Part shown: positions 5,092-41,427 of the stretch, piece by piece
How the letters are laid out: the number at the start of each line of letters is the position of its first letter
Numbering within the stretch: the first letter of the stretch is position 1
From: a virus
Lineage: Duplodnaviria > Heunggongvirae > Uroviricota > Caudoviricetes
IMG/VR virus record: IMGVR_UViG_2841729706_000003
Span: 1-41,667 of that record
Direction: 5' to 3' (one strand)
Length of the DNA: 41,667 nucleotides
The notes under the pieces: generated by a model
Told to the model about the DNA's origin: nothing
The model's input: the letters and a program-made list of their open reading frames with translations, nothing else
The model's database searches: none
Program-made: the position numbers and the translations under genes

Positions 5092-8000
5092 CAGGGAAAC
5101 GTCCCCGGAATGCCGCGGCCGAAAGTGGCGCTGATCTGGTGGACGCGGAACGCAATCGACGTGATCGGTCCACCGAAATCGGCGGCCTGGTCGGCAACGC
5201 GGTAGAGCCATGCCGGCGCGCCGAGACCGAGAACAGTGCGGGCAACCGAGGCACCATTCAGGATTTCGATCTCGTAGCGCTCGAATTCCTCGCCCAGCGG
5301 CACCTCGGCAGCGTCCCAGCTATCGCCGCCGATCCGGGTTCGCCTGATCCATTTCAGCAGGAAGTCGCCGTTCGTCTGGCGGGTGGCGCGCAGGTGAACG
5401 GGCGAAAGGGGCCGGCGGCCGCGGCCGCGAAGCGTGATGGTCGACTGACTGACGCCCGGATCGGAGACGCCGCGATCGGCAGCACCGACGCGCCAGTTGA
5501 GCGGCATGCCGATGAGGCTGGCCGGAACCGATGCCTGTCCGACAGCCTGATCCAGCACGAGCACCCGCGCGCCCGCAGGCACCGGATCGCGCATCGCGTG
5601 TTCGGTGCCTCTTTGCCCGCGCAAAAGATCGGTCAATACCCAGGAGCGCCCGCCGATCGGCGTTGCGGTCGCGAACTGCAGCACTTCCCACTCGCCGACC
5701 TGGTTCTCGATCATGAAGGCGTTGGCGCCGTTGAGGACCGCAAGTTCCGACGCCGAGGTCAGCGTGCCGCGCTTCAGGTCGACATAGATAGAATTGACAC
5801 GGTCCCATCGCACGGTGGGGCCGCTGTAGACATCACCGATGGTCTCGCCGATCGCGCCAGGAACCGGAATGAGGGTGTCCAGCTCGAACCCGGTCGCTGC
5901 CGGCGAACGCCACAGCGCCACCCCGGAGCGGAAGGGCGACATAAGGCCGGCAACATAGGGCGCGTGTGGGGCGTCCTCGTCGCGCAGCAAGGCCGTGTCG
6001 GCAATCACGGCCTCGGCCTGGAGGATGGAGACGACCGGCGCAATCGCACCGGCGCTCGGTTCCGAATCGACCGTGCCGCCGGCAAGCGGGTCAATCTCGA
6101 ATGCCTCTATCCGCCGCGCCTGCGCTTCGCCTGCGCTATCGACTCGCACCGGATGGCCGGACGGCGCGAAGGCGATCACGTCGCCGGGATCGATCGCCAG
6201 GCGCGACGGCGGCAGTGTGAAGGCGTAGCGTTCGCGGCCGACCCATGCCGCATGCAATTCCAGCTCGGCGATTTCGCGGGCGCGTGTATCGGCCATGACG
6301 ACAGGCGGCGAGAACTCTACGACCCGCTGCGACCCGCCCGAAGAGCGGCGCGCTTCGCTGGAACCGGCCTGATCGTCGCGCGCCTGGTCGCCATACTTGA
6401 TCTTGATCGCATCGGGCAGCTCGGTTTCCTGCGCCCGCGTCCGGCGGAACCGCGGCGCATCCGGGCTGTCCGGGTTTATCACCAGCTCGTCGGCCGTGAT
6501 GGTGGCGACCGGCGCGCGGCCGTGTCGGGCGAGGAATTTCATAACGCCGTCGCTTTCGACCGCATCGAACTGATAGGCCGGCCGAAGCGAGTCGAGCAGC
6601 GAGCGCGGCGAAATCACATTGCCGACTGTGATTCCGTCGACCACGCCGGGGATCGGTTCGATCAGCCGCAGGCCGAAACCCGCCTCGTCGAGAATGGTTC
6701 GGATCGTCTCGGGCGCGGGTGCGGCACCCATGCGGCCCGAAAGCCAGTGTCCAGATTGCCAGTTCTGCCAGTCGCCCCAGAAATTGCGGCTGATCGGAAA
6801 GGACGGCCAGGGCCGCGAATCCCACGCCCAGATGTTCGACCGGGCGAGATCTATCATGCGCCCGCCGTAGACGGACGAAACCGGGTTGTTTGCCGCCGTG
6901 TTGTAATAGCCGATCATCGCCTGAAGCCACGATCGTTGCATCTGATCGTCGCGGGCGCGGGTCGAGTACCAGGGCAAGCCGCCTTCCGACGAAATGCGGT
7001 CGGGAAAGATATTCGGCTGGTTCGCGCCCTTGTCGACGGCGCCGCAGCCCATCTCCGTGAAGCGGATCGGCTTGGACATCGGCGTCCAGGCGGTCGCGGC
7101 ACCGCTACGCACGCCGCCGGGCCGGTTGCGATGCGCGTTGCTCCACCATCCCCGGATATCCTTGTTCCGGTAGACGAAGGGTTCGTTGTAGGCGCCGTCC
7201 GCGATCGGGGCGCGGGTCTGGGCGTCGCGCGCCGCCTTGCTGGCATAGTACCATGCGTAATGTTCACCACCTTCGACATTCGAGCGGAGATACGCCTGGT
7301 CGTAGATCGTCGCCGGCCCGGCCGGGTTGAAATCCAGATGACCGGAACCATCGCGCCAGTCCGACAACGGCAGATAGTTGTCGATGCCGATGAAGTCGAT
7401 ATTGGCGTTCGACCAGAGCGGATCGAGATGGAAGAACACGTCGCCCGATCCGTCGCCGGGCCGGTGGCTGTGATACTCCGACCAGTCGGCCGCGTAGGAA
7501 ATCTTGGTGGCGGCGCCGACGATCGAGCGGACATCGCCGGCAAGTGCTGCAAGCGCGGTCACGAAGGGATAGGCCGATGCGCTGGAGCGCACCGTCGAGA
7601 GGCCGACCATTTCCGAGCCGATCAGGAAGGACTCGACGCCGCCGGCGAGCTGCGCGAGCTTGGCGTTGTGCAGCACGAAACGCCGATAGCTCCATTCCGC
7701 CGGCCCCGAATAGGTGACGGTCGTTCCCGATCCGCCGAAATGGCCGGGCGCTGCCGTGCCGACGAAGGCGGAGACCTGCGTGCCGGCGGTGGCCGTCTTG
7801 TCGGGCGAACCCGCAAAACTGGCAGCCGGCGAACAGGTGATGCGCCCACGCCATGGAAAGGCCGGCTGGCCGCTGGCGCCTGCATTGTTGCTGTAAGGGT
7901 CCGGAAGGCTGTTGCCGGGCGGCACGTCCATCATCATGAAGGGCAGAAACATCACGTCCAGCCCGCGCGCCTTCAGCATGCGGATGCATCGGATCACGCT

Positions 8001-19741: not shown

Positions 19742-20773
19742 ATGAACGACGATCCAGATTCGAAACCGGCACCAATCATCGGCCAGGTTACCGATTTGCT
19801 TGGTGCCGGAGCGGTAGCAAGCCGTTTCCTGACCATGGTGGAACGGGGCATAGGGCCATTGCTCGGGCCTCTGGCCGATCGCTGGAAGAACAAGCACATC
19901 CGCGCCGATGCAGACCGATTTTTCTCCGATATGAATTCGAAAGGACTTGCTCCCACATCGGCAGAGCTCACGATCGACGGCCGGGCAAACCTTCGCGTCA
20001 GCTTCGAAACCGTCCGGCAACAGGAAAACCGGGAAGCGATCGCTGTTGAAGGGCTCATCGAGGCCGAACGCATAGCTGGCGAATTGCCTCCGCCAAGCGA
20101 TCCCCTGCCGGACATCGAAGCTGAATGGATCGATCACTTCTGGGATCTGGCCGGGCGTGTCAGTTCCGAAGGGCGGCAAGCGCTATGGGGTCGAATTCTG
20201 GCACGTTCGGCAGCGGGTCGCTTCACGAGCGCTCGCGCGTTGACACTACTTTCCACTTTGAGTGGCGAGGAGGCACGACAGCTTGAAAGATTGGCCCAAT
20301 TTACCTGCCGGTTCGAGATTGATGAAGTCGTCACAGGCTTTGGGCTGTTCCGGCGAATCCCTTCACCTCTCCAGGATTCGGACCGGGCAATTCTAGAAGA
20401 GGCCAACGCCCGTCTATTTGAGAAAATGCAGCCGTTGTCGCAACGTCTCTTTGGGTCGATCGGTATTTTCGTTGAGGACGGCTTTGCGTTCAGTTTCCAG
20501 CAGAGGCCTAGGGGCGACGTCATCAGATTGGCTCTTGCGGGACGTTCATTCCGGCTGCACGGTCGGAGCCGACTAATCAGTCCATTACCTGGCGATACAC
20601 ATGGGTTCGTCGGTTTCGGCAGCGGCGTTGAAATATCCCCGATAGGTGCGGAGATATTCGAACTCATTCGAATCGAACCGAACCACGAATGGTTGCGTAT
20701 TCTTGCTGGAGCGTTCGCGGTACTTGGCTGGCAGCTTTGTGAAGCGGACGGGTCTCCAGTGGCTCCAGGTTAG
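19742..20773 (+). CDS. DUF2806/Abi-alpha-like protein (moron)
   Basis: RQQENREAI...EWIDHFWDLA..VS.EG.Q.LWGRILA...S.RAL.LL..LS..EA pattern. SD GGGGGAGG. Opposite strand to the phage genes. Confidence 0.65.
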   Translation: MNDDPDSKPAPIIGQVTDLLGAGAVASRFLTMVERGIGPLLGPLADRWKNKHIRADADRFFSDMNSKGLAPTSAELTIDGRANLRVSFETVRQQENREAIAVEGLIEAERIAGELPPPSDPLPDIEAEWIDHFWDLAGRVSSEGRQALWGRILARSAAGRFTSARALTLLSTLSGEEARQLERLAQFTCRFEIDEVVTGFGLFRRIPSPLQDSDRAILEEANARLFEKMQPLSQRLFGSIGIFVEDGFAFSFQQRPRGDVIRLALAGRSFRLHGRSRLISPLPGDTHGFVGFGSGVEISPIGAEIFELIRIEPNHEWLRILAGAFAVLGWQLCEADGSPVAPG

Positions 20774-20822
20774 GCGCGCATAGGATAATCTTGGACGCTG
20801 AGCGACGATATGAGGGGCGATC

Positions 20823-22208
20823 ATGGAAAGCAGGCGGCAGTTTGCAACCTCGGTGAAGGCAGTGGAGGCCTTCACCGAAGAGTGGGTCGAGACGATCCTT
20901 AAATTCAGATCACTGGAGGAAGCGGGGAAAACCGTCAGCCAAGCTCAGATCGAATTTCTCGACAAAACGGAATTTCTAAATCATTTTGACGGCAACAATT
21001 TTGTTAGTGCAAATGGCTACGACTATTTGCGCTCTGCGGCAGAACTCGTTCTTCACGAGGACAAACTGCAATTTCGGGTAAGGCGTGAAACGGCTCAGGC
21101 TGAACTCGAAAGAGCTTTCGCGACTGACGTCAAAAAACTCAAGAAAAGACGCCGGTTTTCGCCAAACGCCATTGTGAAGGAGGCGAAAGCGAAACTTCAC
21201 GCACTGCCCTTTTCAGACGGCTTATACGTCTTTCCTGCCATATTTGCACCGAATGCGATTGAGCACTCCTTCCTATGCGGTCCAATAGAAATTGTCCCTA
21301 AGGCTCGATTCTTGGCAGAGAACAAAGCCGCGATCGAGAACATGAAGAAGGAGGAATCGAAAGGTAAGTGGCCGAGTTTGGCCGAGCGATGGGAACAATA
21401 TATCGGTCGATACGATCATTTTGTGACCGTTCACATGGATGGCTTCGAAAGCGAGAGGGCATGGGTGGTTGCACGCGAGAGCGCAGAATTCCTGCTGAAT
21501 CTCGTTCGCATGACATTCACCTTTCAAGTGACGGAAAGGATTAAGCTAGCGGGCGGATTTATTTGGGATGAATCAAGCACATTTCTCATGATTTCGCCGA
21601 GTGGTGGCATCGGTCTTTCCTCACAGGACGGCCCTTGGGGATCGCATCTCGATAATGATTGGACTTGTGAGGTGGATCGACAACTGGGTGCGTCTCGCGG
21701 TTACCTTTCAAGTCTGGCAGCTTTGCTTACCAGCGGGAAATATCCGACTTCGCCAATCCTTGAAAGATTGCGCTATGCCAATCAACTAATCTCCGAAGCC
21801 TATTGCGAACCTCATGATCACATCCGCCTTGTGCGCATAGTATCCGCATTGGAAGCGCTTGCTTTGGTCGATGGGAACGAGAAGGCGCGCCCTGTGGCGG
21901 TGCGTTGCGCTTGCGCCGGCGGTTGGTCGGACACCGCACACGCCATGCGAATCTTTGAAGCCGTAAGCCAAGCCTATCACTGGCGGAACGCAATTGTTCA
22001 CGGTGATCCATCTCCACCCGAAGCAATCAAAGAGGCTTTTCTGCGCCTGGAGCAGTTTTTGGTTCACATCTACGAGGGGTTTGTAGTTCTTTTTGGCGGT
22101 ATCTGGAATGCCAAGAAACCCGAAACAATTCGCGACCTCCGTCGAGAAGTACGAGAAAGGATAGATCTTTTTTTCTGGTCCCCCGAGTTGGCAACCTCGG
22201 ACGGGTAA
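20823..22208 (+). CDS. HEPN-domain protein (ApeA-like architecture), putative RNase
   Basis: C-terminal RLRYA...IVSALEAL...YHWRNAIVHG with R-x4-H at 21984-22001. SD GAGGGG. Low GC (21/60 at 20941-21000). Confidence 0.8.
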   Translation: MESRRQFATSVKAVEAFTEEWVETILKFRSLEEAGKTVSQAQIEFLDKTEFLNHFDGNNFVSANGYDYLRSAAELVLHEDKLQFRVRRETAQAELERAFATDVKKLKKRRRFSPNAIVKEAKAKLHALPFSDGLYVFPAIFAPNAIEHSFLCGPIEIVPKARFLAENKAAIENMKKEESKGKWPSLAERWEQYIGRYDHFVTVHMDGFESERAWVVARESAEFLLNLVRMTFTFQVTERIKLAGGFIWDESSTFLMISPSGGIGLSSQDGPWGSHLDNDWTCEVDRQLGASRGYLSSLAALLTSGKYPTSPILERLRYANQLISEAYCEPHDHIRLVRIVSALEALALVDGNEKARPVAVRCACAGGWSDTAHAMRIFEAVSQAYHWRNAIVHGDPSPPEAIKEAFLRLEQFLVHIYEGFVVLFGGIWNAKKPETIRDLRREVRERIDLFFWSPELATSDG

Positions 22209-22244
22209 ATCCTATTTTTGACCGGACGCCACTAGGTGGGATTG

Positions 22245-24431
22245 ATGGAAGAAATTTACAAATTCAGTGATGACATGCCCGGTCGGAATGCCTTCCGGGA
22301 CGACAAATTGGGATTTCGCCCGTTCGCGTCACGGCTGGCTAAAGTTCTCTTGTCGATGGATGCGCCGAACGGTTATGTCATTGGCCTGCACGGAGTTTGG
22401 GGCAGCGGCAAGTCCACCGCGCTGAATTTCGTTCGTCAGCATGTCGAAAAGCACAACCAGGAGATCGAGCGGCCCGAAGAGCAGGTGGTGCTGATCGAGT
22501 TTCAGCCCTGGCTGATATCAGGTCATCAGGATTTAATCGGTGCGTTCTTCAAGGTCCTGTCAGAACGCCTGCCTGTGCTATCGGAGCAACCTAGCAACCT
22601 ACTTGGCAAGCTTCAGAGTGTCGGGAAAAAGGCCGGTGATCCTATTATCGACGCGGCGGCGGCCATCGGAGCACTTTTTGATCCAACTGCCGGGATTGGT
22701 TCGAAAGCTGTTGCAACTGTCGCGAAGAGCACTTTGAAGGACCGGCTGGATAGATGGCAGGCGATTCCTTCTCTGCAGTCAAGCTATCAAACGCTGGTGG
22801 TCAAGCTTGCCCAGCAGAAGCGCAGAATAGTCGTCTTTATTGACGACGTCGACCGGCTAAGCCAGGACGAAATCCGCAACATGATGCAGCTTGTGAAGTC
22901 CGTCGGCCGCTTGCCGTATGTTACCTACGTTCTTGCCTATGATCGACGCATCGTTTGGGCCGCGCTGGATCGCGAAGATTCCACTCATGAAGGGCCGCGG
23001 TTTGCAGAAAAAATCATTCAGCATGAATTGGAACTTCCGCGCCCGACGCAAAATGCGCTTCTCAGAGTGTTCGATAGTGCGGCCAGGGACTTCCTGGACG
23101 GCATCGAGTCAAACGAACGTCTGCATCGCATAGTTCTTCATGGGCTCTACAATTGGATCGCAACGCCTCGCGACGCGATACGGCTCGCGAACGCGATTAA
23201 GTTCTCCTGGGGTGCCATTCGCGGCGAGATTGATCCCCACGACCTCCTCGCGATGGAGGGGCTGCGTGTGTTCGACTACGACACTTTTCAGTGGTTGAGA
23301 AAGAACCGCGGTTTTCTGATAGGCGATGACCTTACGATGCTCAATGATGACGAGCGCAAGAAAATAGCCTCGAAGTTGCGAACGCAACTCACTGAGAATG
23401 ACAAGAATTACGTAATTGAACTTCTGGCGAACTTGTTTCCCGGACGCGAAAAAGAGCTCCGTGGTGGCCTTCAACATCATGGGGAGCCATATTATTCCAT
23501 AGTGAAACGTGGCGGCGTGGGAGCGGCACAAGGCTACGACGCCTACTTCAGTCTATTTCCACCGGAGGGGGAAATCTCGAAATCAGCCGCTGATAGCCTG
23601 GCCTCCCGTCTCGACGATCGTGAATACATCGAGCAAATGATTGTCGAGACGTTTGGCAATGCCGACCGCAAAGGCGAGCCGCTTGTCGGAAGTTTTCTGG
23701 CACAGCTACACTATAGGATGCTTGGCAATTCCAATATCAAGCCGACAACGCAGTTGCTTGCGGCTCTGATGGCAACTGGTGATAAGATTGTTTCAATCGA
23801 GTGGACGGGCCGCTGGTTTGCCGCTCCGGCATATATCGGGTTGTCCGGCTTATTGAGGGAGATGGTCAAGCGTTGGGGGCAGGAAATGGCGCTTCAAGAG
23901 TTTTGCACTGTGGCCAAGGACGGCTCACCCCTGATGTCCTCTTTCTTGCTCGCACAGGTATCGCCGAGCTTGGCTTCTCAGGGCGCCGATCGCGATGGAC
24001 TTCTGACGGAGGACCAAGCCAATGAGCTGGCGGCAGTAGTTCAGGAACGCATCAGAGATGCAATTGGCAAGAAAGCCTTGCACACTTTGCCCGATCTTTG
24101 GCCGGTTTTTCAAGTGTGGAGGCAAGTGGCTCAATCGGATGAAATTAAGAATTGGGTTTCAGAAACCCTCAGCAACCATCCCAGCTTACTGGCCAAATTG
24201 CCCATCTTCAGAACAAGAAGTGCGAGCGGTGATGGGGTTGACTACTCGCTAGGTTCGAAACCCGATCCGAGCTTATTTCAGATGGAGGACCTCGTGAGCG
24301 CTGCCAACGAGCTCGTCGCCAATGAGGAAACGGACAAAGTCACTCGCGCTAAAGCCGAAGCCATCCTAAGGGGCGTCAGAGATGGCATTCCTGACTATGC
24401 TACGGATGGAGTCGCAGATGACGACCAATAA
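22245..24431 (+). CDS. KAP-family P-loop NTPase with a long C-terminal region (alternative GTG start at 22236)
   Basis: DDKLGFRPFA, YVIGLHGVWGSGKST (Walker A), IEFQPW, VFIDDVDRL (Walker B), YVLAYDR, FAEKII, TPRDAIRLAN. Confidence 0.92.
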   Translation: MEEIYKFSDDMPGRNAFRDDKLGFRPFASRLAKVLLSMDAPNGYVIGLHGVWGSGKSTALNFVRQHVEKHNQEIERPEEQVVLIEFQPWLISGHQDLIGAFFKVLSERLPVLSEQPSNLLGKLQSVGKKAGDPIIDAAAAIGALFDPTAGIGSKAVATVAKSTLKDRLDRWQAIPSLQSSYQTLVVKLAQQKRRIVVFIDDVDRLSQDEIRNMMQLVKSVGRLPYVTYVLAYDRRIVWAALDREDSTHEGPRFAEKIIQHELELPRPTQNALLRVFDSAARDFLDGIESNERLHRIVLHGLYNWIATPRDAIRLANAIKFSWGAIRGEIDPHDLLAMEGLRVFDYDTFQWLRKNRGFLIGDDLTMLNDDERKKIASKLRTQLTENDKNYVIELLANLFPGREKELRGGLQHHGEPYYSIVKRGGVGAAQGYDAYFSLFPPEGEISKSAADSLASRLDDREYIEQMIVETFGNADRKGEPLVGSFLAQLHYRMLGNSNIKPTTQLLAALMATGDKIVSIEWTGRWFAAPAYIGLSGLLREMVKRWGQEMALQEFCTVAKDGSPLMSSFLLAQVSPSLASQGADRDGLLTEDQANELAAVVQERIRDAIGKKALHTLPDLWPVFQVWRQVAQSDEIKNWVSETLSNHPSLLAKLPIFRTRSASGDGVDYSLGSKPDPSLFQMEDLVSAANELVANEETDKVTRAKAEAILRGVRDGIPDYATDGVADDDQ

Positions 24432-24577
24432 GTACTGATAGTCTTTCTATTAAACGGGTTTTGAACGGGTCAGGGCAGCCGGCAAGGCATTTCGTCGACA
24501 CATGGCGCGGACAAGCAGCGCTGAGGTGCCCCAGGGCCACTTTTGGCAAAACTGCAATCTCAGCGTAGGATGGCGCC

Positions 24578-24760
24578 ATGGGATGGCGGGCTGACCTCGC
24601 ATATGACAAGGCCGAACGGGAAGAATGGCGCCGCTTCATGCGGGCGCAGCCTGTCTGGCGGCGGCTAAATATCTACGTCTGGCAGTTTCTGTTCCTGGTC
24701 GCCGTTGCTGTGATCCTTGCCGGCCCGTTCGTCTTCTCCATCATCGGCTCCCCCTCCTGA
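24578..24760 (+). CDS. Small single-TM membrane protein (60 aa)
   Basis: Charged N-terminus, then IYVWQFLFLVAVAVILAGPFVFSII. AGGA upstream. Confidence 0.55.
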   Translation: MGWRADLAYDKAEREEWRRFMRAQPVWRRLNIYVWQFLFLVAVAVILAGPFVFSIIGSPS

Positions 24761-24929
24761 TCGACCGCAAGCGATCGGGGCTCGATCAGTATGAGGCCAA
24801 GGTCCAACTATCGCCGCCGTGGCGAAATGTTATCGATCGACGGATTGGATGGGGCGGTCGCGCCTATCCCCAGTTGGCGCTGCCAGTTGCTAGACCGGCA
24901 ACTTTCTAGCCTTGAAATGGGAGACCATC

Positions 24930-25955
24930 ATGAGAAGCTTGTTTCGCTCTTGCGTCTTTGCAATTGTGCTTGCAGTCATGCCATGTGCCGAGGCGTTGGC
25001 TGACGACCCCATTCCCGTAACGCCAGACAACTTCGTCAGGGCCGAGTCGGACTTGTACTTCGGCAATATCGTCAAGGATGGCGGCCTCGGGAAATTTGTC
25101 CACCGCCGCGAGCCTGCGGAAATCGACAATCAAACGGTCATCCGGCTCAACCGCGACACATTATATTCCGCCGCCGTGTTCGATCTCGATGCTGGTTCGG
25201 TGACCGTAAAGATACCTGAAGTCGGCAAACGCTTCGTCTCAATGCAGGTCATCAACGAAGATCAGTATACGCCGGCCGTCTATTACGGCAAAGGAAACCA
25301 CACCTTTACCAGGAAAGAGATCGGTACGCGTTACGTTATCGTCGCCATCCGGACCCTGGTTGATCCGGCCGATGCCAAGGACCTGGAAAAGGTTCACGCC
25401 CTGCAAGATGCGATCAAGGTAGACCAGAAGAGCGCCGGCAAATTCGAAATCCCGAATTGGGATGCCGCCAGCCAGGCGAAGGTGCGTGAAGCACTCCTCG
25501 TCCTCGCCTCAACGCTGCCAGACGCGAACCGGATGTTCGGCACCAAAGCCCAGGTCGACCCTGTCCGGCGGTTGATCGGCGCGGCTTCGGCCTGGGGCGG
25601 AAATCCCGACAAGGAAGCGATCTATCTCAATGTCACGCCTTCCAAAAACGACGGCAAGACAATCTACAAGGTCACGGCGGCGAAGGTTCCTGTCGATGGC
25701 TTCTGGTCGGTCAGCCTCTACAATGCCAAGGGCTTCTACGAGAAAAACCCCTACGACGCCTATAGTTTCAACAGCATTACGGCTCAGAAGGCTGCCGATG
25801 GGTCTGTGACGATCCAGTTCGGAGGGTGCGACGGAAAAATCCCGAATTGCCTGCCTGTCATGGCGGACTGGAACTACATGGTCCGTCTCTACAGGCCTCA
25901 TCCCGAGGTCCTGAACGGCAAATGGAAGTTTCCAGAGGCGCAGGCAGTTAACTGA
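24930..25955 (+). CDS. Exported DUF1254/DUF1214 protein (alternative start 24912)
   Basis: Signal peptide MRSLFRSCVFAIVLAVMPCAEALA; VTPDNFVRAESD.YF, IRLNRDTLYS, PVDGFWSVSLYN, WNYMVRLYRP. Confidence 0.88.
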   Translation: MRSLFRSCVFAIVLAVMPCAEALADDPIPVTPDNFVRAESDLYFGNIVKDGGLGKFVHRREPAEIDNQTVIRLNRDTLYSAAVFDLDAGSVTVKIPEVGKRFVSMQVINEDQYTPAVYYGKGNHTFTRKEIGTRYVIVAIRTLVDPADAKDLEKVHALQDAIKVDQKSAGKFEIPNWDAASQAKVREALLVLASTLPDANRMFGTKAQVDPVRRLIGAASAWGGNPDKEAIYLNVTPSKNDGKTIYKVTAAKVPVDGFWSVSLYNAKGFYEKNPYDAYSFNSITAQKAADGSVTIQFGGCDGKIPNCLPVMADWNYMVRLYRPHPEVLNGKWKFPEAQAVN

Positions 25956-32817: not shown

Positions 32818-33038
32818 TTGCGATTGCTCAACTGGCATTCCAGGCGCATTTGGCGTGAGCGGAGATCGCGCAGCCGCACCTCCAGTTCCAAGCGATAGTG
32901 ACTGCGCGGCCGCAGGCCCGATATCCGCACCGCCAGGGACTGACACTCCTCCTCGATGCGCGCCATCTCGCTCTGCTCGCGCCAGACCAGAAGCGGCGGC
33001 GGAAGCGATGAGACTGGCGAGCGCTGCGCGGTCATCAT
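32814..33038 (-). CDS. Hypothetical coiled-coil phage protein
   Basis: RISGLRPRSHYRLELE.RL..L; ATGA overlaps at both ends. Confidence 0.7.
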   Translation of the reverse strand: MMTAQRSPVSSLPPPLLVWREQSEMARIEEECQSLAVRISGLRPRSHYRLELEVRLRDLRSRQMRLECQLSNRK

Positions 33039-33937
33039 ACTTTCCCCCATCGCCGCGGCCTGTTACCGTCAAGGCCATGCGCAACCTGCTTTCCATGCTC
33101 CTTGTCCTTGCGGCCGGCTCGCCCGCCCTTGCCGACGATCGGGCGCTCGGCGTCGCCATGGCGATCGCGGCCGGAAAGGAATGCAGCGGGATCTCGCTCG
33201 ACCTGGATGCTGTCGCCCGTCTGATCGCCGAAGAGACCGTTTCCGATCCCGCTTTCGAGGACCGCGTTACCGGCGGCTATCTGGAAGGCGCCATCCTTCG
33301 CATCCGCCATGCCGACGCCGCCGACCGGGTCACTCATTGCAACCGGATGCGGGAAATCATCGTGCAGGCCGGGTTCGGAAACTGAAAACTTGGCGGTCTC
33401 ATTGCCCCACACGTCATTGCCAGGCCAAGGCTCACGGGCGAACAGCTCGGCCATGAACTGATCTGGCAGGAGTGCCGACATCATGGCGCGCGCCTCGGGC
33501 GGCTTGCGACTGTGTTCGCGGCGAATGGAGTCGATCAGATTGCGAACGGATTTCGAGCGAACCACCGGCTCGCCTATCGTGCCGATCAGGAACGGTTCTG
33601 TCGACGATCGCAAAATGTAGCCGGTGCCGAAGGTCGGCTTGCCTTTGGGTGTCCGCTTCACCCAGGCGCCGCCGGTTTTGTATGTGAAGCCGTAGTGTTT
33701 CATGAGCCGCATCGCCACTGGCAGATGAGGCCAAGTCGACCACATCCAAAGCAGGCAATTCCCCGAGGCGAGATAACCAACGGGCAACGCCGCCAGTTCG
33801 TCCTCACTCATCGTCTCGTAGTGTGCTTCCGGGCTTTTCTCGTATCCCTTTTCCGACCGCATCTCGTAGCGGTAACAGGGGTCGATCAGGAGACCGCCGT
33901 ATTTGAGCGGCGTCAGCCCATGGAAAGGCCACGTCAT
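33035..33937 (-). CDS. MT-A70-family adenine methyltransferase with a ~116-aa C-terminal read-through extension antisense to the moron
   Basis: IDPCYRY, EAHYETM, LWMWST.P, GFTYKT..AWVK, GTGY..RS..EPFLIG, REHSRKP, ELFAR, WGNE..KF. Confidence 0.9.
   Translation of the reverse strand: MTWPFHGLTPLKYGGLLIDPCYRYEMRSEKGYEKSPEAHYETMSEDELAALPVGYLASGNCLLWMWSTWPHLPVAMRLMKHYGFTYKTGGAWVKRTPKGKPTFGTGYILRSSTEPFLIGTIGEPVVRSKSVRNLIDSIRREHSRKPPEARAMMSALLPDQFMAELFAREPWPGNDVWGNETAKFSVSEPGLHDDFPHPVAMSDPVGGVGMADAKDGAFQIAAGNAVLESGIGNGLFGDQTGDSIQVERDPAAFLSGRDRHGDAERPIVGKGGRAGRKDKEHGKQVAHGLDGNRPRRWGKV
33077..33385 (+). CDS. Small exported moron protein (102 aa, two Cys)
   Basis: Signal peptide MRNLLSMLLVLAAGSPALA; opposite strand within the early operon. 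Confidence 0.7.
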   Translation: MRNLLSMLLVLAAGSPALADDRALGVAMAIAAGKECSGISLDLDAVARLIAEETVSDPAFEDRVTGGYLEGAILRIRHADAADRVTHCNRMREIIVQAGFGN

Positions 33938-34173
33938 GGGCGGTCCTCGTCGATACGCCAGCCTGCCTTGAGCGCCGTCACCACCGACACGCTATCGGCG
34001 TGACGCTTTATCACCAGCTTGACGTTCTCGATCGTGACGCCGATTGCGCCGAGGCGCACACCGTTGGTCACGCGGCTGGCGAGATGATTGCGAACGGCCT
34101 CCACGTCGAGGCCATGCGCGCGCTCCAGGTAGCGCAGCACTGCATGGTCGGTGACGCGGATCGGCGGCTTCAT
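33934..34173 (-). CDS. Small conserved phage protein with a TDHAVLRYLER motif (RelE/DUF4258-like fold suspected)
   Basis: 79 aa; ATGA overlaps at both ends. Confidence 0.7.
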   Translation of the reverse strand: MKPPIRVTDHAVLRYLERAHGLDVEAVRNHLASRVTNGVRLGAIGVTIENVKLVIKRHADSVSVVTALKAGWRIDEDRP

Positions 34174-34781
34174 CCGGCCTTCACCGTTCTGATCAACGCG
34201 CCAAGCGCGTTCATCACTGGCATCCAATCGCGTTCGCCCATCCGGTCGACCGGTTTCGCGAGGTCGGAAACGAAAGCACGAAAACCTTGCGGATCGACCT
34301 TTTCGCACCGCGCCAGTATCTGCCATTGCGCCACCGCGATTTTCGCACCTGGGCAGCGCAGCCAAGCCGGAAGGGCGACGCTGTCGCTCCAGTCGACATG
34401 CGCCTCGCGCGCCATCCAGGCCTTCAAGGCATCGACGGCCTTGGCCGCATCTTTGCCGTCGAGGAGAAATCGGGTGTGGTCGATGTTTGTCTGTCTTTTG
34501 ACAAACATCAGCATGGCGGCATCGCGCCGATCGCGGACGATGCCGAGGTTCCAGGCATCGATCCAGAGCGCCTGGAGCTTCTTTGCAAACGGCCCCTGAA
34601 GGCCCTTTTGAACGGGCATGAAACCATGATTGCGAAACTCCGAAACAACGCGCTGGCGCTCGGCCTCGCTCATATCGCGGGTGGAGCCCTTGCCGGTGAC
34701 GCGGACGAGGACCGCACGATAGGTGTCCTCGTCCAGGCCGAGCTGCTTGCGGGCAATTTGGATGACAGCGAGCGCGTTCAT
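34170..34781 (-). CDS. gemA: GemA (Mu gp16, DUF1018)
   Basis: IQIARKQLGLDEDTYR..L..VTGK.ST.DM, KKLQALWI, FVKRQT, A.KA.DALKAW. Confidence 0.92.
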   Translation of the reverse strand: MNALAVIQIARKQLGLDEDTYRAVLVRVTGKGSTRDMSEAERQRVVSEFRNHGFMPVQKGLQGPFAKKLQALWIDAWNLGIVRDRRDAAMLMFVKRQTNIDHTRFLLDGKDAAKAVDALKAWMAREAHVDWSDSVALPAWLRCPGAKIAVAQWQILARCEKVDPQGFRAFVSDLAKPVDRMGERDWMPVMNALGALIRTVKAG

Positions 34782-34833
34782 GCCGCGACCGCCTTATCAA
34801 GCCACAAAGAGAAACCGGGAGTCGCTCGCACAA

Positions 34834-34861
34834 TTGCAGAAAACCGTTTTGCGCGTACGAT
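34834..34861 (+). promoter_or_regulatory. Sigma70-like promoter for the plus-strand moron
   Basis: TTGCAG-N16-TACGAT, followed by SD GAGGGGG and the ATG at 34886. Confidence 0.5.
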
Positions 34862-34885
34862 CGTCATCGCACGAGGGGGGCACTG

Positions 34886-35590
34886 ATGAGAGCTGACGCG
34901 GTACTGCAAGCCTGCAGCAACGTAATTTCGATTGCGATTGGAATTTTTCTCGGATTGGCCTTGGCAGACATCTCTGCGGGGGAGCGTGATTTGTGGGAGT
35001 GGCAAACGCTTATCGCCGGAATTCTGGCCGTGGCAGCTGCCGGCATAACAGTGTTCCAAATGCAGCGAATTGATGCGCGTCAGCACGAGCGGCATGGCGA
35101 GGTGATGGCGCTCAACCTTCGGGCTGATCGGCTCCGCATTCAACGTGCGACCGTTCCGGCTGCATCTGATTTTAGAAAATGGTCTCAGGAAATGACGGCG
35201 CGGCTCAAGCTGTACCAGGATGAGAAGAGCGATCCTGATGTTTTCAAGCCTTCCTTCGAGACGATGGGCAATCTTTCTGACAAGGCAGGTCAGATCAATA
35301 CACTGCTGCTTGGGAAGGGATTGAAGGCTGCCGAGGACCTCTATGGCCCGGAGCTTACTCAGAGGCTTGCCGAAGCGCGCTCTGGATGGGTTAACCTGAA
35401 TGAGCAACTCAACGCCGCGAAAAGCTACCTGAACGTTAGTGGGATTAGTTCGAGCGACGCCGAGCACGCCATGGACGGCTGCGTACTCTCCATTCGACCG
35501 TTGATCCCGCTGGCAGACATCATCGCTGGCGCGCTCGAAGCATTGGCAACCGAATATCGCCGAACGGTGGGCAACCCCTTTGCCGATTAG
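34886..35590 (+). CDS. Two-TM membrane moron protein with a helical cytoplasmic domain
   Basis: ISIAIGIFLGLALA and WQTLIAGILAVAAAGITVFQM; own SD and promoter; AT-richer codons than the flanking genes. Confidence 0.75.
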   Translation: MRADAVLQACSNVISIAIGIFLGLALADISAGERDLWEWQTLIAGILAVAAAGITVFQMQRIDARQHERHGEVMALNLRADRLRIQRATVPAASDFRKWSQEMTARLKLYQDEKSDPDVFKPSFETMGNLSDKAGQINTLLLGKGLKAAEDLYGPELTQRLAEARSGWVNLNEQLNAAKSYLNVSGISSSDAEHAMDGCVLSIRPLIPLADIIAGALEALATEYRRTVGNPFAD

Positions 35591-35626
35591 CTTCCGAAGA
35601 TTCTCAATGTTGACCTTGGTCATGGC

Positions 35627-35845
35627 TCAACCCTCCCTCGGCTCGATCGGCACGGGACCGCTGCCGTGCGGATTGAAGCCGTGTTCCGCATCCGATAGCT
35701 CCCGCTCCAGCCGGTCGACTTCCGCCTGCCAAAGCCGCATCTGCGCTTCGCGCCGACCGAAATTGTCGATCATGTCGGCACAGACAAGCTGCTGGCGGGC
35801 ATGCTGCAGGCGGCGTTCCAGGTCTTCGATCCGTTCCATCGCCAT
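35627..35845 (-). CDS. Hypothetical coiled-coil phage protein (72 aa)
   Basis: TGATG overlap with the gam stop. Confidence 0.65.
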   Translation of the reverse strand: MAMERIEDLERRLQHARQQLVCADMIDNFGRREAQMRLWQAEVDRLERELSDAEHGFNPHGSGPVPIEPREG

Positions 35846-36366
35846 CACCCCACCGCCGTTTCGAGTTCGGCCGGTTCGATGACGAAATCCTCGCCTTCGG
35901 AAGAAATCGTAACGCCGGCGATCTGACGGGCCGTGTCGGCATCGGCAAGCATGGCGTCCCGATTGATTTCCTCCTTCACGCGAAGGAACCGGCTCAGGCC
36001 GAGCCGCTTGCAGCCCTCGATGACAGCTTCCATGCCACGAATGCCGACCTTCGGCGGGCGCAGGCGCCAACTGATGCGCCCGGTGCCGAAATCATGAAAC
36101 TTGACCTTGCCTTCATTGGTCAGGGAAAGGCGATTGACCTCGCAATAGGCCTGCATGCCCTCTTCAAGCTGCGCGAGTTCCTGGGCGAGCGGAGCAAGTG
36201 CCGCCTCGACCATTTCGCCTACAGTTCTGATCTGCTCGTCAGCAGCGGCTTTCCTGGCAGCGATATCGCGCCGCAAGGTGCCGATGCGACCGACAGTCCA
36301 GACGGCATCTTCGCGCGACTGCGGTACGCGAATCAGTGCTTTTGCTTTAGCTTTGGCTTTCGCCAT
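35845..36366 (-). CDS. gam: Gam host-nuclease inhibitor (Mu Gam-like)
   Basis: VPQSRE.A...IG.L.R, G..AYCE.NR..LT..GK.K...F.TG.I.WR.RPP.V, R.KEEIN.DAM, EDF.IEP. Confidence 0.93.
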   Translation of the reverse strand: MAKAKAKAKALIRVPQSREDAVWTVGRIGTLRRDIAARKAAADEQIRTVGEMVEAALAPLAQELAQLEEGMQAYCEVNRLSLTNEGKVKFHDFGTGRISWRLRPPKVGIRGMEAVIEGCKRLGLSRFLRVKEEINRDAMLADADTARQIAGVTISSEGEDFVIEPAELETAVG

Positions 36367-37356: not shown

Positions 37357-37994
37357 GGCCGGTCCTCCTCGGCGATCGTCTCGCCCATCACCGCGTGGCG
37401 GTTCTGGTCGAAGACCAGCTTGGCGCGAAGGATCATGGGCGGTCGCGGCCCGGTATTGCGCGACGGTTTAAGCCGCCAGACCGCGAAACGAGCCGGACCG
37501 CCTTCAGCCACCTGGAGAAGGTAGCCGGCACGGGCGAGGTTCTGGATGTAGGTTTTTGCCGTGGCCAATGTGACCGCGATGTCGTCCGTGGAGCCGAAGG
37601 TCACGAGGTCTTGGGGCGTAAATCCGCGCCGCCCGGTCGGTCCCCGCATCACATTCCACATCTGTTGCTGTCCGGTGGTCGGACGGACGATCTGCCCGTC
37701 GCGAGATACGATCGGCGTCTCTTCGGGCCGTTTCAGCAGACGATAGACGCGTTCGTCTCGTCCGAGCAGGCTCGCTTGGCTCGATGTCACTTCCGCCACG
37801 CCAGACTGCACGAGGCGCTTTACGAAAGCGCGGATTGGCGCCGTTCCCGCATCGTCTGTGACCGAACGAATCTGGCTTACGGTGAATTCACGCCCATCGC
37901 CGGCGTCGAGCGCCCGCATGACGCGCCAATAATGGTCTTGTCCACGATAAAGCGGCTCGGTCTTCTTGAGTGTCAGCTTGAGGGTAACCGGCAT
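37353..37994 (-). CDS. Tandem winged-helix DNA-binding protein
   Basis: Two wHTH-like repeats (YW..MR...FTV; MW..MR...FT..DL...A.TY...L..AGYL); TGATG overlap with the MuB stop. Confidence 0.75.
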   Translation of the reverse strand: MPVTLKLTLKKTEPLYRGQDHYWRVMRALDAGDGREFTVSQIRSVTDDAGTAPIRAFVKRLVQSGVAEVTSSQASLLGRDERVYRLLKRPEETPIVSRDGQIVRPTTGQQQMWNVMRGPTGRRGFTPQDLVTFGSTDDIAVTLATAKTYIQNLARAGYLLQVAEGGPARFAVWRLKPSRNTGPRPPMILRAKLVFDQNRHAVMGETIAEEDRP

Positions 37995-38752
37995 CAGGCC
38001 ACCCTCCGCGACTGGAAGCGTTTCGGGGTTTCGCCGGTGAAGATGCGACCCTGATAGGTGCCGACATCCAGTTCCGGCAGTCCCGCATTGGCGGCAAAGC
38101 TCGCTGCCGCGTTGAGCGTGGTCGCAATGCGCCGTGCCTTCCCGCCGGTCTGCTCCCGGATGGCGTCGAGCAGGCGGTCGGTTATGGTCAGCTTGGGATA
38201 GAGGAATGACGCCAATGCCCGCGCATCGTCGAGGTCGCAGGGCTGCGCAAGCACCCAATCCAGCACACGGTTATGGACCCGTTCGAACGGCTCCAGCTTT
38301 TGCGGCAACAACTCCTCGCCAACGAGCAGGACGGGAACCTGTGCCGCCTTGTTGATGTCGCGGACCAGTTCAATCATGCCCTTGTCGACCAGCTTGTCGG
38401 CCTCGTCGATGATGACAGGCCGGGCCGGATCGTCGCCCAGCCGCGCAATGATCTCGTCCATCATGTCGCCGATCGTGCCCCGCGGACGAGCCACCCCCAG
38501 CTCGGCGAGAAGCGCCTGACAGAATTTCTTGCGCGTCCAGAAGTCGAAGACCTCGACGAACAATGCGCCCGTCCGGTTCCAGCAATATTGCGCCGCCATC
38601 GTCTTGCCGTAGCCGGAAAAGCCGCTGAAAACCCCGATGTTGGGTAGATGCGCTGGGCGATGTATCAGCGCATCGACAAGCGCGAGACAGGAAGCCACGT
38701 TCTTGAGAGGAGCCACCGATCCGGGTTTAACAGTGTGGGTGTTGCCGTTCAT
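37994..38752 (-). CDS. MuB-like AAA+ transposition ATPase
   Basis: GFSGYGKT (Walker A), VIIDEAD (Walker B), VLLVGEE, RVHNRV; directly after the transposase. Confidence 0.95.
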   Translation of the reverse strand: MNGNTHTVKPGSVAPLKNVASCLALVDALIHRPAHLPNIGVFSGFSGYGKTMAAQYCWNRTGALFVEVFDFWTRKKFCQALLAELGVARPRGTIGDMMDEIIARLGDDPARPVIIDEADKLVDKGMIELVRDINKAAQVPVLLVGEELLPQKLEPFERVHNRVLDWVLAQPCDLDDARALASFLYPKLTITDRLLDAIREQTGGKARRIATTLNAAASFAANAGLPELDVGTYQGRIFTGETPKRFQSRRVA

Positions 38753-38806: not shown

Positions 38807-40975
38807 TTAAAGACGCATGGCCTCGGCGCCGAACTCGTCGAACATTGCGCGCATGGCGCGGTACTCGGACCCGGTCTGATACGCTCCGAGCCATAGAAGA
38901 TCGTCGTCGCGAAGCCGCTCGCCACGGTTGCGGCGCTGCTCCAGATCGAGCGCGCGCCGAAACCGCTGCTCGCGTGTTTCCGGTAGGCGCGTCACCGCCG
39001 CGGTCGACATGTTCGACGATGAGGGGATCGGTTCCGCTGCCGTGGCCTCGTCGCGCATCTGCGCATGGATTTCGGCAGCACGGTCGGACAAGGCGTTCGG
39101 TTGCGCCGGGGCGGAAGCCGACGCCGCAGCGCCGAGGGCCGGCGTGGTGTGGATTTCGGCGCGCTGCGGGAAAGCCAGCAGATTGCCGGCGCGCTTTTCG
39201 GCCTGGTTGCGCATGGCATCCACGACCGCGCGTGGACCGATACGGCGCATTTCGCGCCGGATGTCCTTTATACGACCGTCGACATGCGCCTTTTGCGCAG
39301 CCTTGACCTTGGCGATGGTTTCCACCGGATCGAGGCCGCCAAGTTCGGGGCAAACCGCTTCGCCTAGATAGGTCTCGCCGTCCGCTTCGAACAAAAGCAC
39401 GCGACCGAGGTCGGCGGGGTCCATGCGGCAGAACACGGTTTCGCCGGGCATGACCGAACCGGTCAGATAATGCGCGCCGTCGATGCGTATGCCGGTTTTC
39501 GTGACGGTGCGCAGCCCGTCCTTGCCGGGCACCGGCGCAAGCAGGATGTCGAGTGCGGCAACATTGTCGAGGCGACGGATCGAGCCAGCGAAGGATGCAG
39601 CGACTTCGAAGGGAGTCCGCCGGCCGAGTCCCTCATGCGGCGTCGAGGCGTAGATTTTGTCCGTCCAGTCGTCGCACCACGCCTGAAACGCTGCGAGGTC
39701 CATGTCGACGCCGAAGAGCTCGGAAGGATCGGCTCCGAGCCGCTGGGCGAATGCCTTGCGCCCCTCGATGATCTTGCGGTCCGCAACGCTGTGGCCGACG
39801 AAGCCCGGCAGTCCGGCAAGATCGCGCTGAAACGTCCCGATCGCGCGTTCCACCATGCCTTTCTGTTTCGGGCTGTAGGGCGCCGAGAACTCGACCTCGA
39901 TGCCAAGGGCGGCAAACAGCCGTTGCGTCGCGGTGGCGGCGAAATCGCTGCCATTGTCGATCTTGATCTTTTCCGGCACGCCCCACGCGAGGATGGCTTT
40001 GCGGGTGAGCAGGCCGACGCCGGATGCACGCGGTGTTCGGGTTGCAAGCACCTTCGTCCGGCGCGTTAGCACGTCGATCGCCAGATAGATCGAGTGGCGT
40101 CCCTCTTTCAGCATCACGTCGGCGGGAGATGCGTCGATCTGCCAGCATTCGTTGATGCGCGAAGCCCTCGCCGCATTGACGAGCGCGAATTCGGTCTTGG
40201 AACGATAGCCGTCCGGGTCGGTGAGAAGCTGGAGTTCGTTGCAATACTCCTCTTTCCAGAGCGCAAGCTGGCGCTGGAATGTGCGGATTGGCGGTGCGCG
40301 GAATTCGTCGCCGAATTTGTCCGTGACAAGCTCCAGCGCCCGCTTTGTAGACAGGAAAGGCATCTTGGCGATCGCCGCCAGGGCGAAGGTGCGCACACGC
40401 CCGTCAAGCGCCCGGTCGAGCTGGCTCGTGCCCTTGCGTGCGGTTGCTGGATCGTGCCCGAGTGCGTTGGAGCCGGAGCCGTCCCTAGTCGACCGCCACC
40501 GGGCCAGCGACCGGGCGCTTGCCTGCCGTATCTGCTCCCGAACCCAAGCGGGAACGTCAATTGAACGGCTGTTGTAGACGCCGGCAAAGAGTGTATCGGC
40601 GGCAACGATCGAAAGATTCTGCTCACGGCGAAAGCGATCTGCAAGATTGAGCAGCACGAGTCGCGCGTCGCGCTCGGTGCGCGCCCTGGCCGTTAGCCTG
40701 TCATCCTCGCAGAGCGACGGGCGCAAATCGGCCGGCTCGACTCGGCAATGACGGCCGGCATAGGCAATGCGCGTCGAGAGCGGCAAGAGATCGATATGGA
40801 ATTCGTCGCCGCCGCCGCCGGCCCGCCCGGCGCGCGGACGGCAAAGACCGGCATGGCTGGCCCAATTTTCGCGGGCGATAAGTGCGTTCATGCCGCGCTT
40901 CGTCGCCGGAAGTCCGGGCAATTCCCCGGTGGCTGCAAGATCGGCGAACTCGGCAGCGGTGAACCAAACCTTCAT
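38807..40975 (-). CDS. MuA-like DDE transposase
   Basis: N-terminal Mu-type HTH (WFTAAEFA...LP.TKRG); DDE WQIDAS / IDNGSDF / KGMVERAIGT; Mu-transposase C domain. The ATG at 40975 overlaps the upstream stop. Confidence 0.97.
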   Translation of the reverse strand: MKVWFTAAEFADLAATGELPGLPATKRGMNALIARENWASHAGLCRPRAGRAGGGGDEFHIDLLPLSTRIAYAGRHCRVEPADLRPSLCEDDRLTARARTERDARLVLLNLADRFRREQNLSIVAADTLFAGVYNSRSIDVPAWVREQIRQASARSLARWRSTRDGSGSNALGHDPATARKGTSQLDRALDGRVRTFALAAIAKMPFLSTKRALELVTDKFGDEFRAPPIRTFQRQLALWKEEYCNELQLLTDPDGYRSKTEFALVNAARASRINECWQIDASPADVMLKEGRHSIYLAIDVLTRRTKVLATRTPRASGVGLLTRKAILAWGVPEKIKIDNGSDFAATATQRLFAALGIEVEFSAPYSPKQKGMVERAIGTFQRDLAGLPGFVGHSVADRKIIEGRKAFAQRLGADPSELFGVDMDLAAFQAWCDDWTDKIYASTPHEGLGRRTPFEVAASFAGSIRRLDNVAALDILLAPVPGKDGLRTVTKTGIRIDGAHYLTGSVMPGETVFCRMDPADLGRVLLFEADGETYLGEAVCPELGGLDPVETIAKVKAAQKAHVDGRIKDIRREMRRIGPRAVVDAMRNQAEKRAGNLLAFPQRAEIHTTPALGAAASASAPAQPNALSDRAAEIHAQMRDEATAAEPIPSSSNMSTAAVTRLPETREQRFRRALDLEQRRNRGERLRDDDLLWLGAYQTGSEYRAMRAMFDEFGAEAMRL

Positions 40976-41427
40976 CGGCCCGCCTTCCATCGCGCTTCGA
41001 CGGCTTGTTTCCGGCGCGAAACCTCGCGCTCATGCTCTTCGATGAGGTGCAACTCGATGAGCGAGCCATAGCGTTCCGGCACCACGACATGGCCGAACAA
41101 GGAGGCGACGAAACCGAGCAAGTCATGGCAGCCGGTCGCCGTCACCAAGGCGACGAACCGCTCCAGCGTAATCCGATGGCCTTCCTTGGCCTCGGAGGCG
41201 TAGGCGTCCAGCATGTCGGCACTGATCGAATAGCCGAGTTCCTCGCTCATTCTGGCGGCGACCTCGGCGCGGGGCTTGCCGCATTCGCGCAAGGCCAGAG
41301 CCACGGCCCGGCTGATCTTGGAGCCGAGCCGGTTGCCGGCAAGTTGGTCGGGTTCGAAACCGAGCGCGACCTTCGGTGGTTCCCAATCGAAAAGGTCCGG
41401 TGTGAGGCGATCCCGGCTCCTGCTCAT
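40972..41427 (-). CDS. Phage regulatory protein (CII-like HTH)
   Basis: RAEVAARMS..LG..IS..MLDAYAS.AKE.H.I.LERF.AL; position just before the transposase. Confidence 0.7.
   Translation of the reverse strand: MSRSRDRLTPDLFDWEPPKVALGFEPDQLAGNRLGSKISRAVALALRECGKPRAEVAARMSEELGYSISADMLDAYASEAKEGHRITLERFVALVTATGCHDLLGFVASLFGHVVVPERYGSLIELHLIEEHEREVSRRKQAVEARWKAGR

Follow-up and report, generated by a model that had tools for sequence, protein, structure and literature searches.

The locus at positions 34778-35623 of the IMG/VR virus record IMGVR_UViG_2841729706_000003, of which the whole stretch of 41,667 nucleotides (nt) analysed here is denoted as the window, raises the question why a reading frame on the minus strand remains free of stop codons over the entire length of a gene that is encoded on the plus strand. 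As judged from Pfam and PHROG matches and from the run of co-oriented genes, the early operon of the Mu-like prophage in the window lies on the minus strand, and the plus-strand gene is located backwards inside it. The comparison with diverged relatives described below points to selection for the open frame, which depends on the orientation of the gene within the operon, as well as to conserved junctions with the flanking genes and to a product that is free of protein-level constraint. The frame is likely to be kept open for continuous ribosome cover and coupling, and the likeliest benefit would be protection from Rho-dependent polarity. The following features of the locus, including its minus-strand open reading frame (ORF), are referred to throughout.

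34778-35623, minus strand: stop-free ORF of 281 codons, denoted as the bridge (ORF map, read from sequence)
34886-35590, plus strand: backward gene encoding 234 amino acids, denoted as the plus gene (homology, substitution pattern)
35631-35639, minus strand: GAGGGAGGG, Shine-Dalgarno-like, ending 7 nt 5' of the bridge ATG (read from sequence)
34873-34880, plus strand: GAGGGGGG, Shine-Dalgarno-like, 5 nt 5' of the ATG of the plus gene (read from sequence)
35845-36360, minus strand: Mu Gam-like gene, upstream link of the coupled chain (Pfam/PHROG)
35627-35848, minus strand: gene of a small coiled-coil protein (72-73 amino acids), upstream neighbour of the bridge (translation)
34170-34781, minus strand: gemA, overlapped by the bridge stop within ATGA (Pfam GemA, 1.5e-26)

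Both ends of the bridge show the geometry of coupled operon genes. At the entry, its ATG is found 3 nt past the TGA (35629-35627) of the small coiled-coil gene, the last codons of which harbor the strong Shine-Dalgarno sequence GAGGGAGGG, while at the exit the bridge TGA (34780-34778) and the gemA ATG (34781-34779) overlap as ATGA (34781-34778). The small coiled-coil gene is itself coupled to the stop codon of Gam (GTGA/TGATG at 35848-35843), so that the chain of ORFs is unbroken from Gam through the bridge to gemA. The plus gene and the bridge share one codon register. In such an aligned register antisense stops correspond to sense TTA, CTA and TCA codons only, all of which are avoidable by synonymous choice. 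None of these three codons is present in the plus gene, the GC content of which is 0.559 vs 0.61-0.65 in its neighbours. The 234-codon gene inside the operon, both junctions and the missing codons in a gene richer in AT had been pointed out in a preliminary description of the window and proved correct, as did the statement that the four plus-strand genes at 19742-25955 contain such codons (8, 10, 20 and 3, respectively).

One way to account for these observations is that the bridge is a chance shadow ORF in a genome of 62% GC, the start and stop coincidences being due to accident or left over from a displaced gene. For the single locus the caveat of the preliminary description, namely that antisense frames in GC-rich genomes are often open by chance, is appropriate. 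In the host genome (61.9% GC) 31% of the genes of 200-280 codons are open in the aligned antisense frame, as is 1 of 11 host genes with a GC content at third codon positions (GC3) of 0.60-0.65, and gemA and gam are likewise devoid of TTA, CTA and TCA codons. The probability of an open frame at the window locus amounts to 0.062 under the codon usage of the flanking early genes and to 0.0027 under that of homologues located outside of such operons. It is the comparative data and not the single locus that put the open frame beyond chance.

In order to compare copies of the plus gene inside and outside of opposing operons, a family set of 45 clusters at <80% identity was used. Its members were collected by scanning viral, genomic and metagenomic contigs with the motif, and from the contigs on which the first homologues are encoded. 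Copies are regarded as embedded if they lie backwards in a Mu-like early operon as recognised by tblastn with Mu early proteins. This is the case for 27 clusters, in which the opposite strand carries MuA, MuB and DUF3164 (or Gam) on the upstream side and GemA/Mor on the downstream side; the slot is that occupied in the window. No aligned antisense stop is found in 25 of the 27, and the cover is also kept in the two exceptions, since in L016 the single stop is located just upstream of the bridge ATG and in L050 the bridge consists of two abutting ORFs. Eleven clusters are clearly non-embedded, being co-oriented with their neighbours or situated at divergent junctions, and one of these (L070) is itself a viral contig. 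All 11 carry aligned antisense stops, with 1-10 stops each. The survey of TTA/CTA/TCA depletion in intra-operon vs other copies against codon nulls, which the preliminary description had proposed, was thus strongly positive: the three codons account for 2 of 6,230 codons in embedded vs 54 of 2,492 codons in non-embedded copies, i.e. 0.32 vs 21.7 per 1000 (Fisher 1.4e-27; Mann-Whitney on per-gene counts 2e-8).

The two groups are matched in GC3 (0.58 in embedded and 0.60 in non-embedded copies), the eleven other A-ending codons are used equally (175 vs 167 per 1000), and the two non-aligned antisense frames contain about 9-10 stops per gene in either group. The flanking genes of the embedded phages, despite a much higher GC3, use TTA/CTA/TCA at 5.8 per 1000, 18-fold above the embedded gene (Fisher 2e-10). 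Even under the most lenient null, derived from these flanking high-GC3 genes, the joint P of open frames is about 1e-6 for just eight loci. Furthermore, frames are open despite low GC in L011 (GC3 0.51), in L050 (GC3 0.40) and in L020, where a frame of 785 codons has about 50% GC. Between clusters, 71% of the plus-frame third positions differ and are thus saturated, which excludes mere inheritance and argues that the open state is maintained. Four further loci from viral or metagenomic contigs (L012, L015, L020 and L036) are surrounded by runs of opposite-strand genes, belong to phages of unrecognised type and are stop-free as well. The bridge thus behaves as an aligned reverse ORF that shares the register of the plus gene, avoids the three codons and is conserved across diverged relatives. 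As its openness exceeds what codon usage predicts and cover is kept in 27 of 27 embedded clusters vs stops in 11 of 11 non-embedded ones, we consider a chance shadow ORF to be extremely improbable. The open frame is selected only where the gene is embedded.

The junctions recur together with the open frame. At the exit, the stop codon of the bridge and the start codon of the following gene share an ATGA or GTGA in about 21 of the 27 embedded loci, and in four further loci the two codons are within 3 nt of each other; by chance, an exit overlap is expected in under a tenth of cases. At the entry of most embedded loci, upstream stop and bridge start overlap (ATGA/GTGA) or are no more than 10 nt apart, and a GGAG- or GAGG-type sequence is often present 4-11 nt 5' of the bridge start. 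Overall, the coupling geometry recurs in about 25 of the 27 diverged phages.

The complete set of operon-gene signals (Shine-Dalgarno sequence, ATG and coupled junctions) and the frame kept open across the embedded relatives could also belong to a second functional protein gene, i.e. to an antisense overlapping pair in which the minus-strand product itself matters. A precedent exists in a Mu-like Pseudomonas phage (PMC9936078). However, the mean pairwise identity of the bridge products is 0.139, as compared with 0.135 ± 0.003 obtained by plus-synonymous resampling (z = 1.2), and hence equals the prediction from plus-strand constraint alone. In the closer embedded pairs the ratio of plus-synonymous/minus-nonsynonymous changes to the reverse class is 29:9, 45:4 and 59:5, and minus-nonsynonymous changes are as free as in the non-embedded control pair L022/L023, where the same substitution classes give 55:5. 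A phmmer search with the bridge product returned 0 matches among 1.84 billion representative proteins, and no match was obtained in Pfam, PHROGs or PADLOC. Moreover, the length of the bridge tracks the backward cargo, from 113 to 785 codons, and the bridge is split in Sinorhizobium phage Aussie and in L050, which is unexpected of a defined protein. At such divergence the constraint tests could miss early phage proteins that evolve very fast; still, we regard a second functional protein as very unlikely. Of the two products only that of the plus strand is under purifying selection, that of the minus strand being without detectable constraint, which is at odds with a functional antisense pair. 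The frame is selected to be open and not to encode a particular protein. Recurring coupling combined with a product lacking protein-level constraint fits a ribosome bridge and not a second functional gene.

The plus gene, on the other strand, is a real gene for a membrane-anchored, alpha-helical protein of an uncharacterised but conserved family. Homologues are 22-65% identical and of similar length, with a hydrophobic N-terminus and the motif WQTLIAGILAVAAA...RH..L..LNLRADRLR in common. Several of them are normal chromosomal genes in which stops break the minus frame, and the one from Aminobacter aganoensis is found in a non-phage context between a racemase gene and uvrA. Since the two frames are codon-aligned, GC content by codon position is uninformative on the coding strand, and substitution patterns and homology were used instead. 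Among the phage copies, the differences per plus-frame codon position are 0.61, 0.53 and 0.71, a signature of plus-strand coding. The converse assignment, with the minus ORF as the real gene and the plus ORF as its shadow, was rejected because non-embedded homologues carry minus-strand stops, and it is also contradicted by the variation, which peaks at plus-frame third positions. No match of the plus protein was found in Pfam, PHROGs or PADLOC, and the ESM Atlas yields just unnamed clusters and four-helix-bundle-like structural neighbours. With the plus protein of the window as query, tblastn against GenBank phages gave no match; two other family members used as tblastn queries retrieved Sinorhizobium phage Aussie from the phage collection. 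Shortened family copies of about 140-160 codons are present in Mesorhizobium chromosomes (L022 4004-4477 and L023 4010-4423). They group with the window gene in the tree, are non-embedded and have acquired antisense stops, and they may be remnants of decayed prophages.

If the frame is kept for ribosome cover, the early mRNA would have about 0.85 kilobases (kb) of antisense sequence to cross. A ribosome that ends the upstream gene would restart at the ATG 3 nt downstream, aided by the strong Shine-Dalgarno sequence, would translate the 281 codons of the bridge, the product being immaterial, and would terminate at the TGA overlapping the gemA ATG in order to reinitiate on gemA. By this transit a long, otherwise untranslated and somewhat C-rich RNA would be shielded from Rho-dependent polarity and possibly from decay, and gemA, mor and the late genes would still be expressed. 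The presumed gain is twofold, avoidance of Rho polarity on 0.85 kb of otherwise naked RNA and delivery of ribosomes to gemA. The host encodes Rho, and the C/G ratio of the bridge RNA is 1.13 overall and 1.2-1.4 locally, most neighbours being at 0.8-0.97 and MuA at 1.07. The interpretation as a translation bridge given in the preliminary description is thus supported by the positive depletion test, the recurring junctions and the unconstrained product, to which translation and the role of Rho would be probable additions.

The same sequence evidence would fit equally well a frame that is selected for translation but for a benefit other than Rho avoidance. Candidates are protection from RNase E or RNase III (e.g. 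against pairing with the plus-strand transcript), assistance to RNA polymerase against head-on collisions or backtracking, and ribosome delivery to a gemA start with weak signals. The excess of C over G is modest, ATGA dominates the exit junction, and for narnaviruses the proposed benefit is ribosome cover as such (PMC8316113). Against ribosome delivery as the sole reason, L037 and L068 tolerate uncoupled gemA starts. A benefit of this other kind is considered unlikely, and shielding from Rho is retained as the preferred explanation of the ribosome cover.

Several points weigh against this reading. Under lenient nulls, an open frame at the window locus by itself has a probability of 0.06-0.3, which is only mildly unusual. 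The non-embedded status was partly assigned from ORF maps viewed after the stop counts were known, and three clusters of ambiguous context (L003, L041 and L045) were excluded from the test. A quick tree intersperses non-embedded among embedded copies with 6-7 state changes at weak support, which suggests that embedding may have been gained or lost repeatedly, but the well-supported branches force just one change of embedding state. In L037 and L068, 46 and about 120 nt, respectively, are left untranslated before gemA, the uncoupled start of which has a Shine-Dalgarno sequence of its own; coupling is thus not obligatory. The modest C/G excess of the bridge RNA establishes no Rho site and lends weak support to the Rho step. 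Finally, we infer translation of the bridge in lytic growth from sequence evolution only.

Longer cassettes show how the bridge is adapted to its cargo. In L020 (2294-4651) the stop-free minus frame of 785 codons has ATGA overlaps at both ends and extends across a pentapeptide-repeat gene of 461 amino acids and a family-like gene, both of which are backward genes sharing a register; the phage type of L020 was not recognised by tblastn. The L010 bridge (about 400 codons) spans a lipoprotein gene and the family gene, while those of L033, L054 and L057 span two tandem plus genes, which are two family copies in L054 and L057. Tandem backward genes share one register in six of eight cassettes (L010, L020, L033, L054, L057 and L003, the others being L052 and L071) vs one in three expected, and a single bridge ORF can therefore cross them. 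The isolated Sinorhizobium phage Aussie (OR786373, L071) carries at 4923-6454 two backward genes, AUSSIE_16 and AUSSIE_17, which are annotated and differ in frame. These are covered by two mutually overlapping minus ORFs, 6454-5570 and 5750-4923, neither of which is annotated. Coupling to AUSSIE_15 is by a GTGA overlap at the start of the first of these bridge ORFs, and coupling to GemA by an ATGA overlap at the end of the second.

The bridge frame of L052 is open even over a lipoprotein-like plus ORF (2388-2855) that is in a different register. Openness out of register is a costlier constraint than the aligned case. L003 (5512-7759) represents a non-Mu context in the vicinity of cobalamin genes and may be another embedded cassette; here an antisense frame remains open for about 730 codons, over the family gene as well as the plus gene that follows it (6811-7455), and two minus-strand genes are located upstream.

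A search of the literature found no description of bridge ORFs across antisense genes in phage operons. The bridge is a variant of three known principles, namely aligned ambigrammatic coding, translational coupling and translation as a shield against polarity. Translational coupling proceeds by termination-reinitiation at overlapping stop and start codons (ATGA, TGATG), and both bridge junctions have such overlapping geometry in most relatives. Contrary to ordinary coupling, where both products matter, the middle ORF appears to exist only as a ribosome carrier. Rho-dependent termination is known to be blocked by translated leader or upstream ORFs, and phages possess dedicated devices such as lambda N, HK022 put and P4 Psu. 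The problem is the same, as a long transcript that would otherwise be partly untranslated is kept from Rho; instead of short ORFs, RNA elements or protein factors, however, the solution consists of the codon choice of the backward gene.

Phage morons are autonomous accessory transcription units, e.g. lambda bor and lom, and the preliminary description had designated the plus gene as a moron with its own promoter. Like a moron, the plus gene is accessory, has a lower GC and a ribosome-binding site of its own and is probably expressed from the prophage. In contrast to morons, no terminator and no clear promoter were found for it by consensus scan, it lies backwards inside an operon and not between operons, and at least 27 phage lineages have the family in the same slot. 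The scan, which covers alphaproteobacterial promoters poorly, found no useful promoter or terminator around the plus gene, and the claim of an own promoter was not confirmed; upstream of the gene just one weak candidate is visible:

34834-34861, plus strand: weak candidate promoter of the plus gene, TTGCAG-N16-TACGAT, below the scan threshold (by eye)

The GC of the plus gene is lower than that of its neighbours, but the gene resembles a sporadic moron less than a permanent occupant of one position, which lies between DUF3164 or Gam on one side and GemA on the other, in a whole group of alphaproteobacterial Mu-like phages. The family holds this position in 27 phage clusters, among which the companion genes vary.

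Aligned ambigrammatic coding is known from narnaviruses. Culex narnavirus 1 and its relatives contain a codon-aligned reverse ORF without product homology; only the aligned register allows stop avoidance by synonymous change, and translation or ribosome cover has been proposed as the benefit (PMC6884476, PMC8316113). In both systems an aligned reverse frame is kept open by avoidance of the same sense codons. In contrast to the narnaviruses, which are RNA viruses of eukaryotes with an overlap of genome length, the overlap reported here belongs to a DNA phage and is local to the backward gene or cassette. Its open frame is on the operon strand, is joined stop-to-start to the flanking genes and tracks orientation in the operon. 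A further analogue is found in the beetrevirus Fc02, where the early gene 10 fully overlaps the opposite-strand genes olg1/olg2, whose transcription takes place in the lysogen (Ramirez-Sanchez et al. 2023; PMC9936078). Active exclusion proteins were reported from both strands of Fc02, and bridging was not proposed as a role (PMC9936078). Fc02 is likewise a Mu-like transposable phage with an early-operon ORF over opposite-strand genes, and it uses the two strands in lysogeny vs lytic growth. The systems differ in that the operon-strand product is without constraint here, and in position, which is next to ner/repressor in Fc02 vs between Gam or DUF3164 and gemA here.

The arrangement provides a case of selection on an ORF for the act of translation and not for its product, with a natural control in the form of the same family inside vs outside of an opposing operon. 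It explains how lysogeny-type cargo is carried backwards inside essential operons that nevertheless stay unbroken, and it bears on the reach of Rho-type polarity beyond enterobacteria. With respect to annotation, gene callers report one of the two strands, and some of the long antisense ORFs in GC-rich genomes are selected. As Sinorhizobium phage Aussie is an isolated phage with the same arrangement, the idea is directly testable. That bridge frames are a general design rule of tailed-phage genomes for backward genes in coupled operons is a proposition for which we would give even chances. Under such a rule, any backward gene or cassette within a translationally coupled operon would have to leave the operon strand open and coupled. 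The selected trait would be ribosome transit and not the product, and the frames would reveal from sequence alone where phage architecture is constrained by Rho-type polarity. Annotation would then have to allow for two real 'genes' at one place with one meaningful protein, and a standing pool of translated, unconstrained polypeptides would be available as a source of new phage genes.

The remainder of the early operon in the window agrees with its assignment as Mu-like. MuA transposase, MuB ATPase, Gam, GemA and a Mor-type activator are co-oriented, and the matches comprise rve and Mu-transpos_C, AAA_22, Phage_Mu_Gam (1e-33), GemA (1.5e-26) and the late activator phrog_836. No family match above threshold was obtained for the small coiled-coil protein in Pfam or PHROGs. 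On the minus strand, gemA is followed downstream by an MT-A70 methyltransferase and then by the Mor-type activator. The genes at the upstream end are the following.

38807-40990, minus strand: MuA (Pfam/PHROG)
37994-38752, minus strand: MuB (Pfam/PHROG)

A second backward gene of the window is located at 33077-33385 on the plus strand; its product is small and secreted and carries a signal peptide. The minus-strand methyltransferase ORF (33035-33937) runs about 112 codons past its MT-A70 domain and thereby crosses this gene in the same register, as a second candidate bridge of the window. A relative with 61% identity to the small secreted protein is encoded in a Mu-like prophage of Chelativorans (L072 4001-4336), where the gene is nested in a called minus-strand gene (3968-4576) with 4-nt overlaps at both ends.

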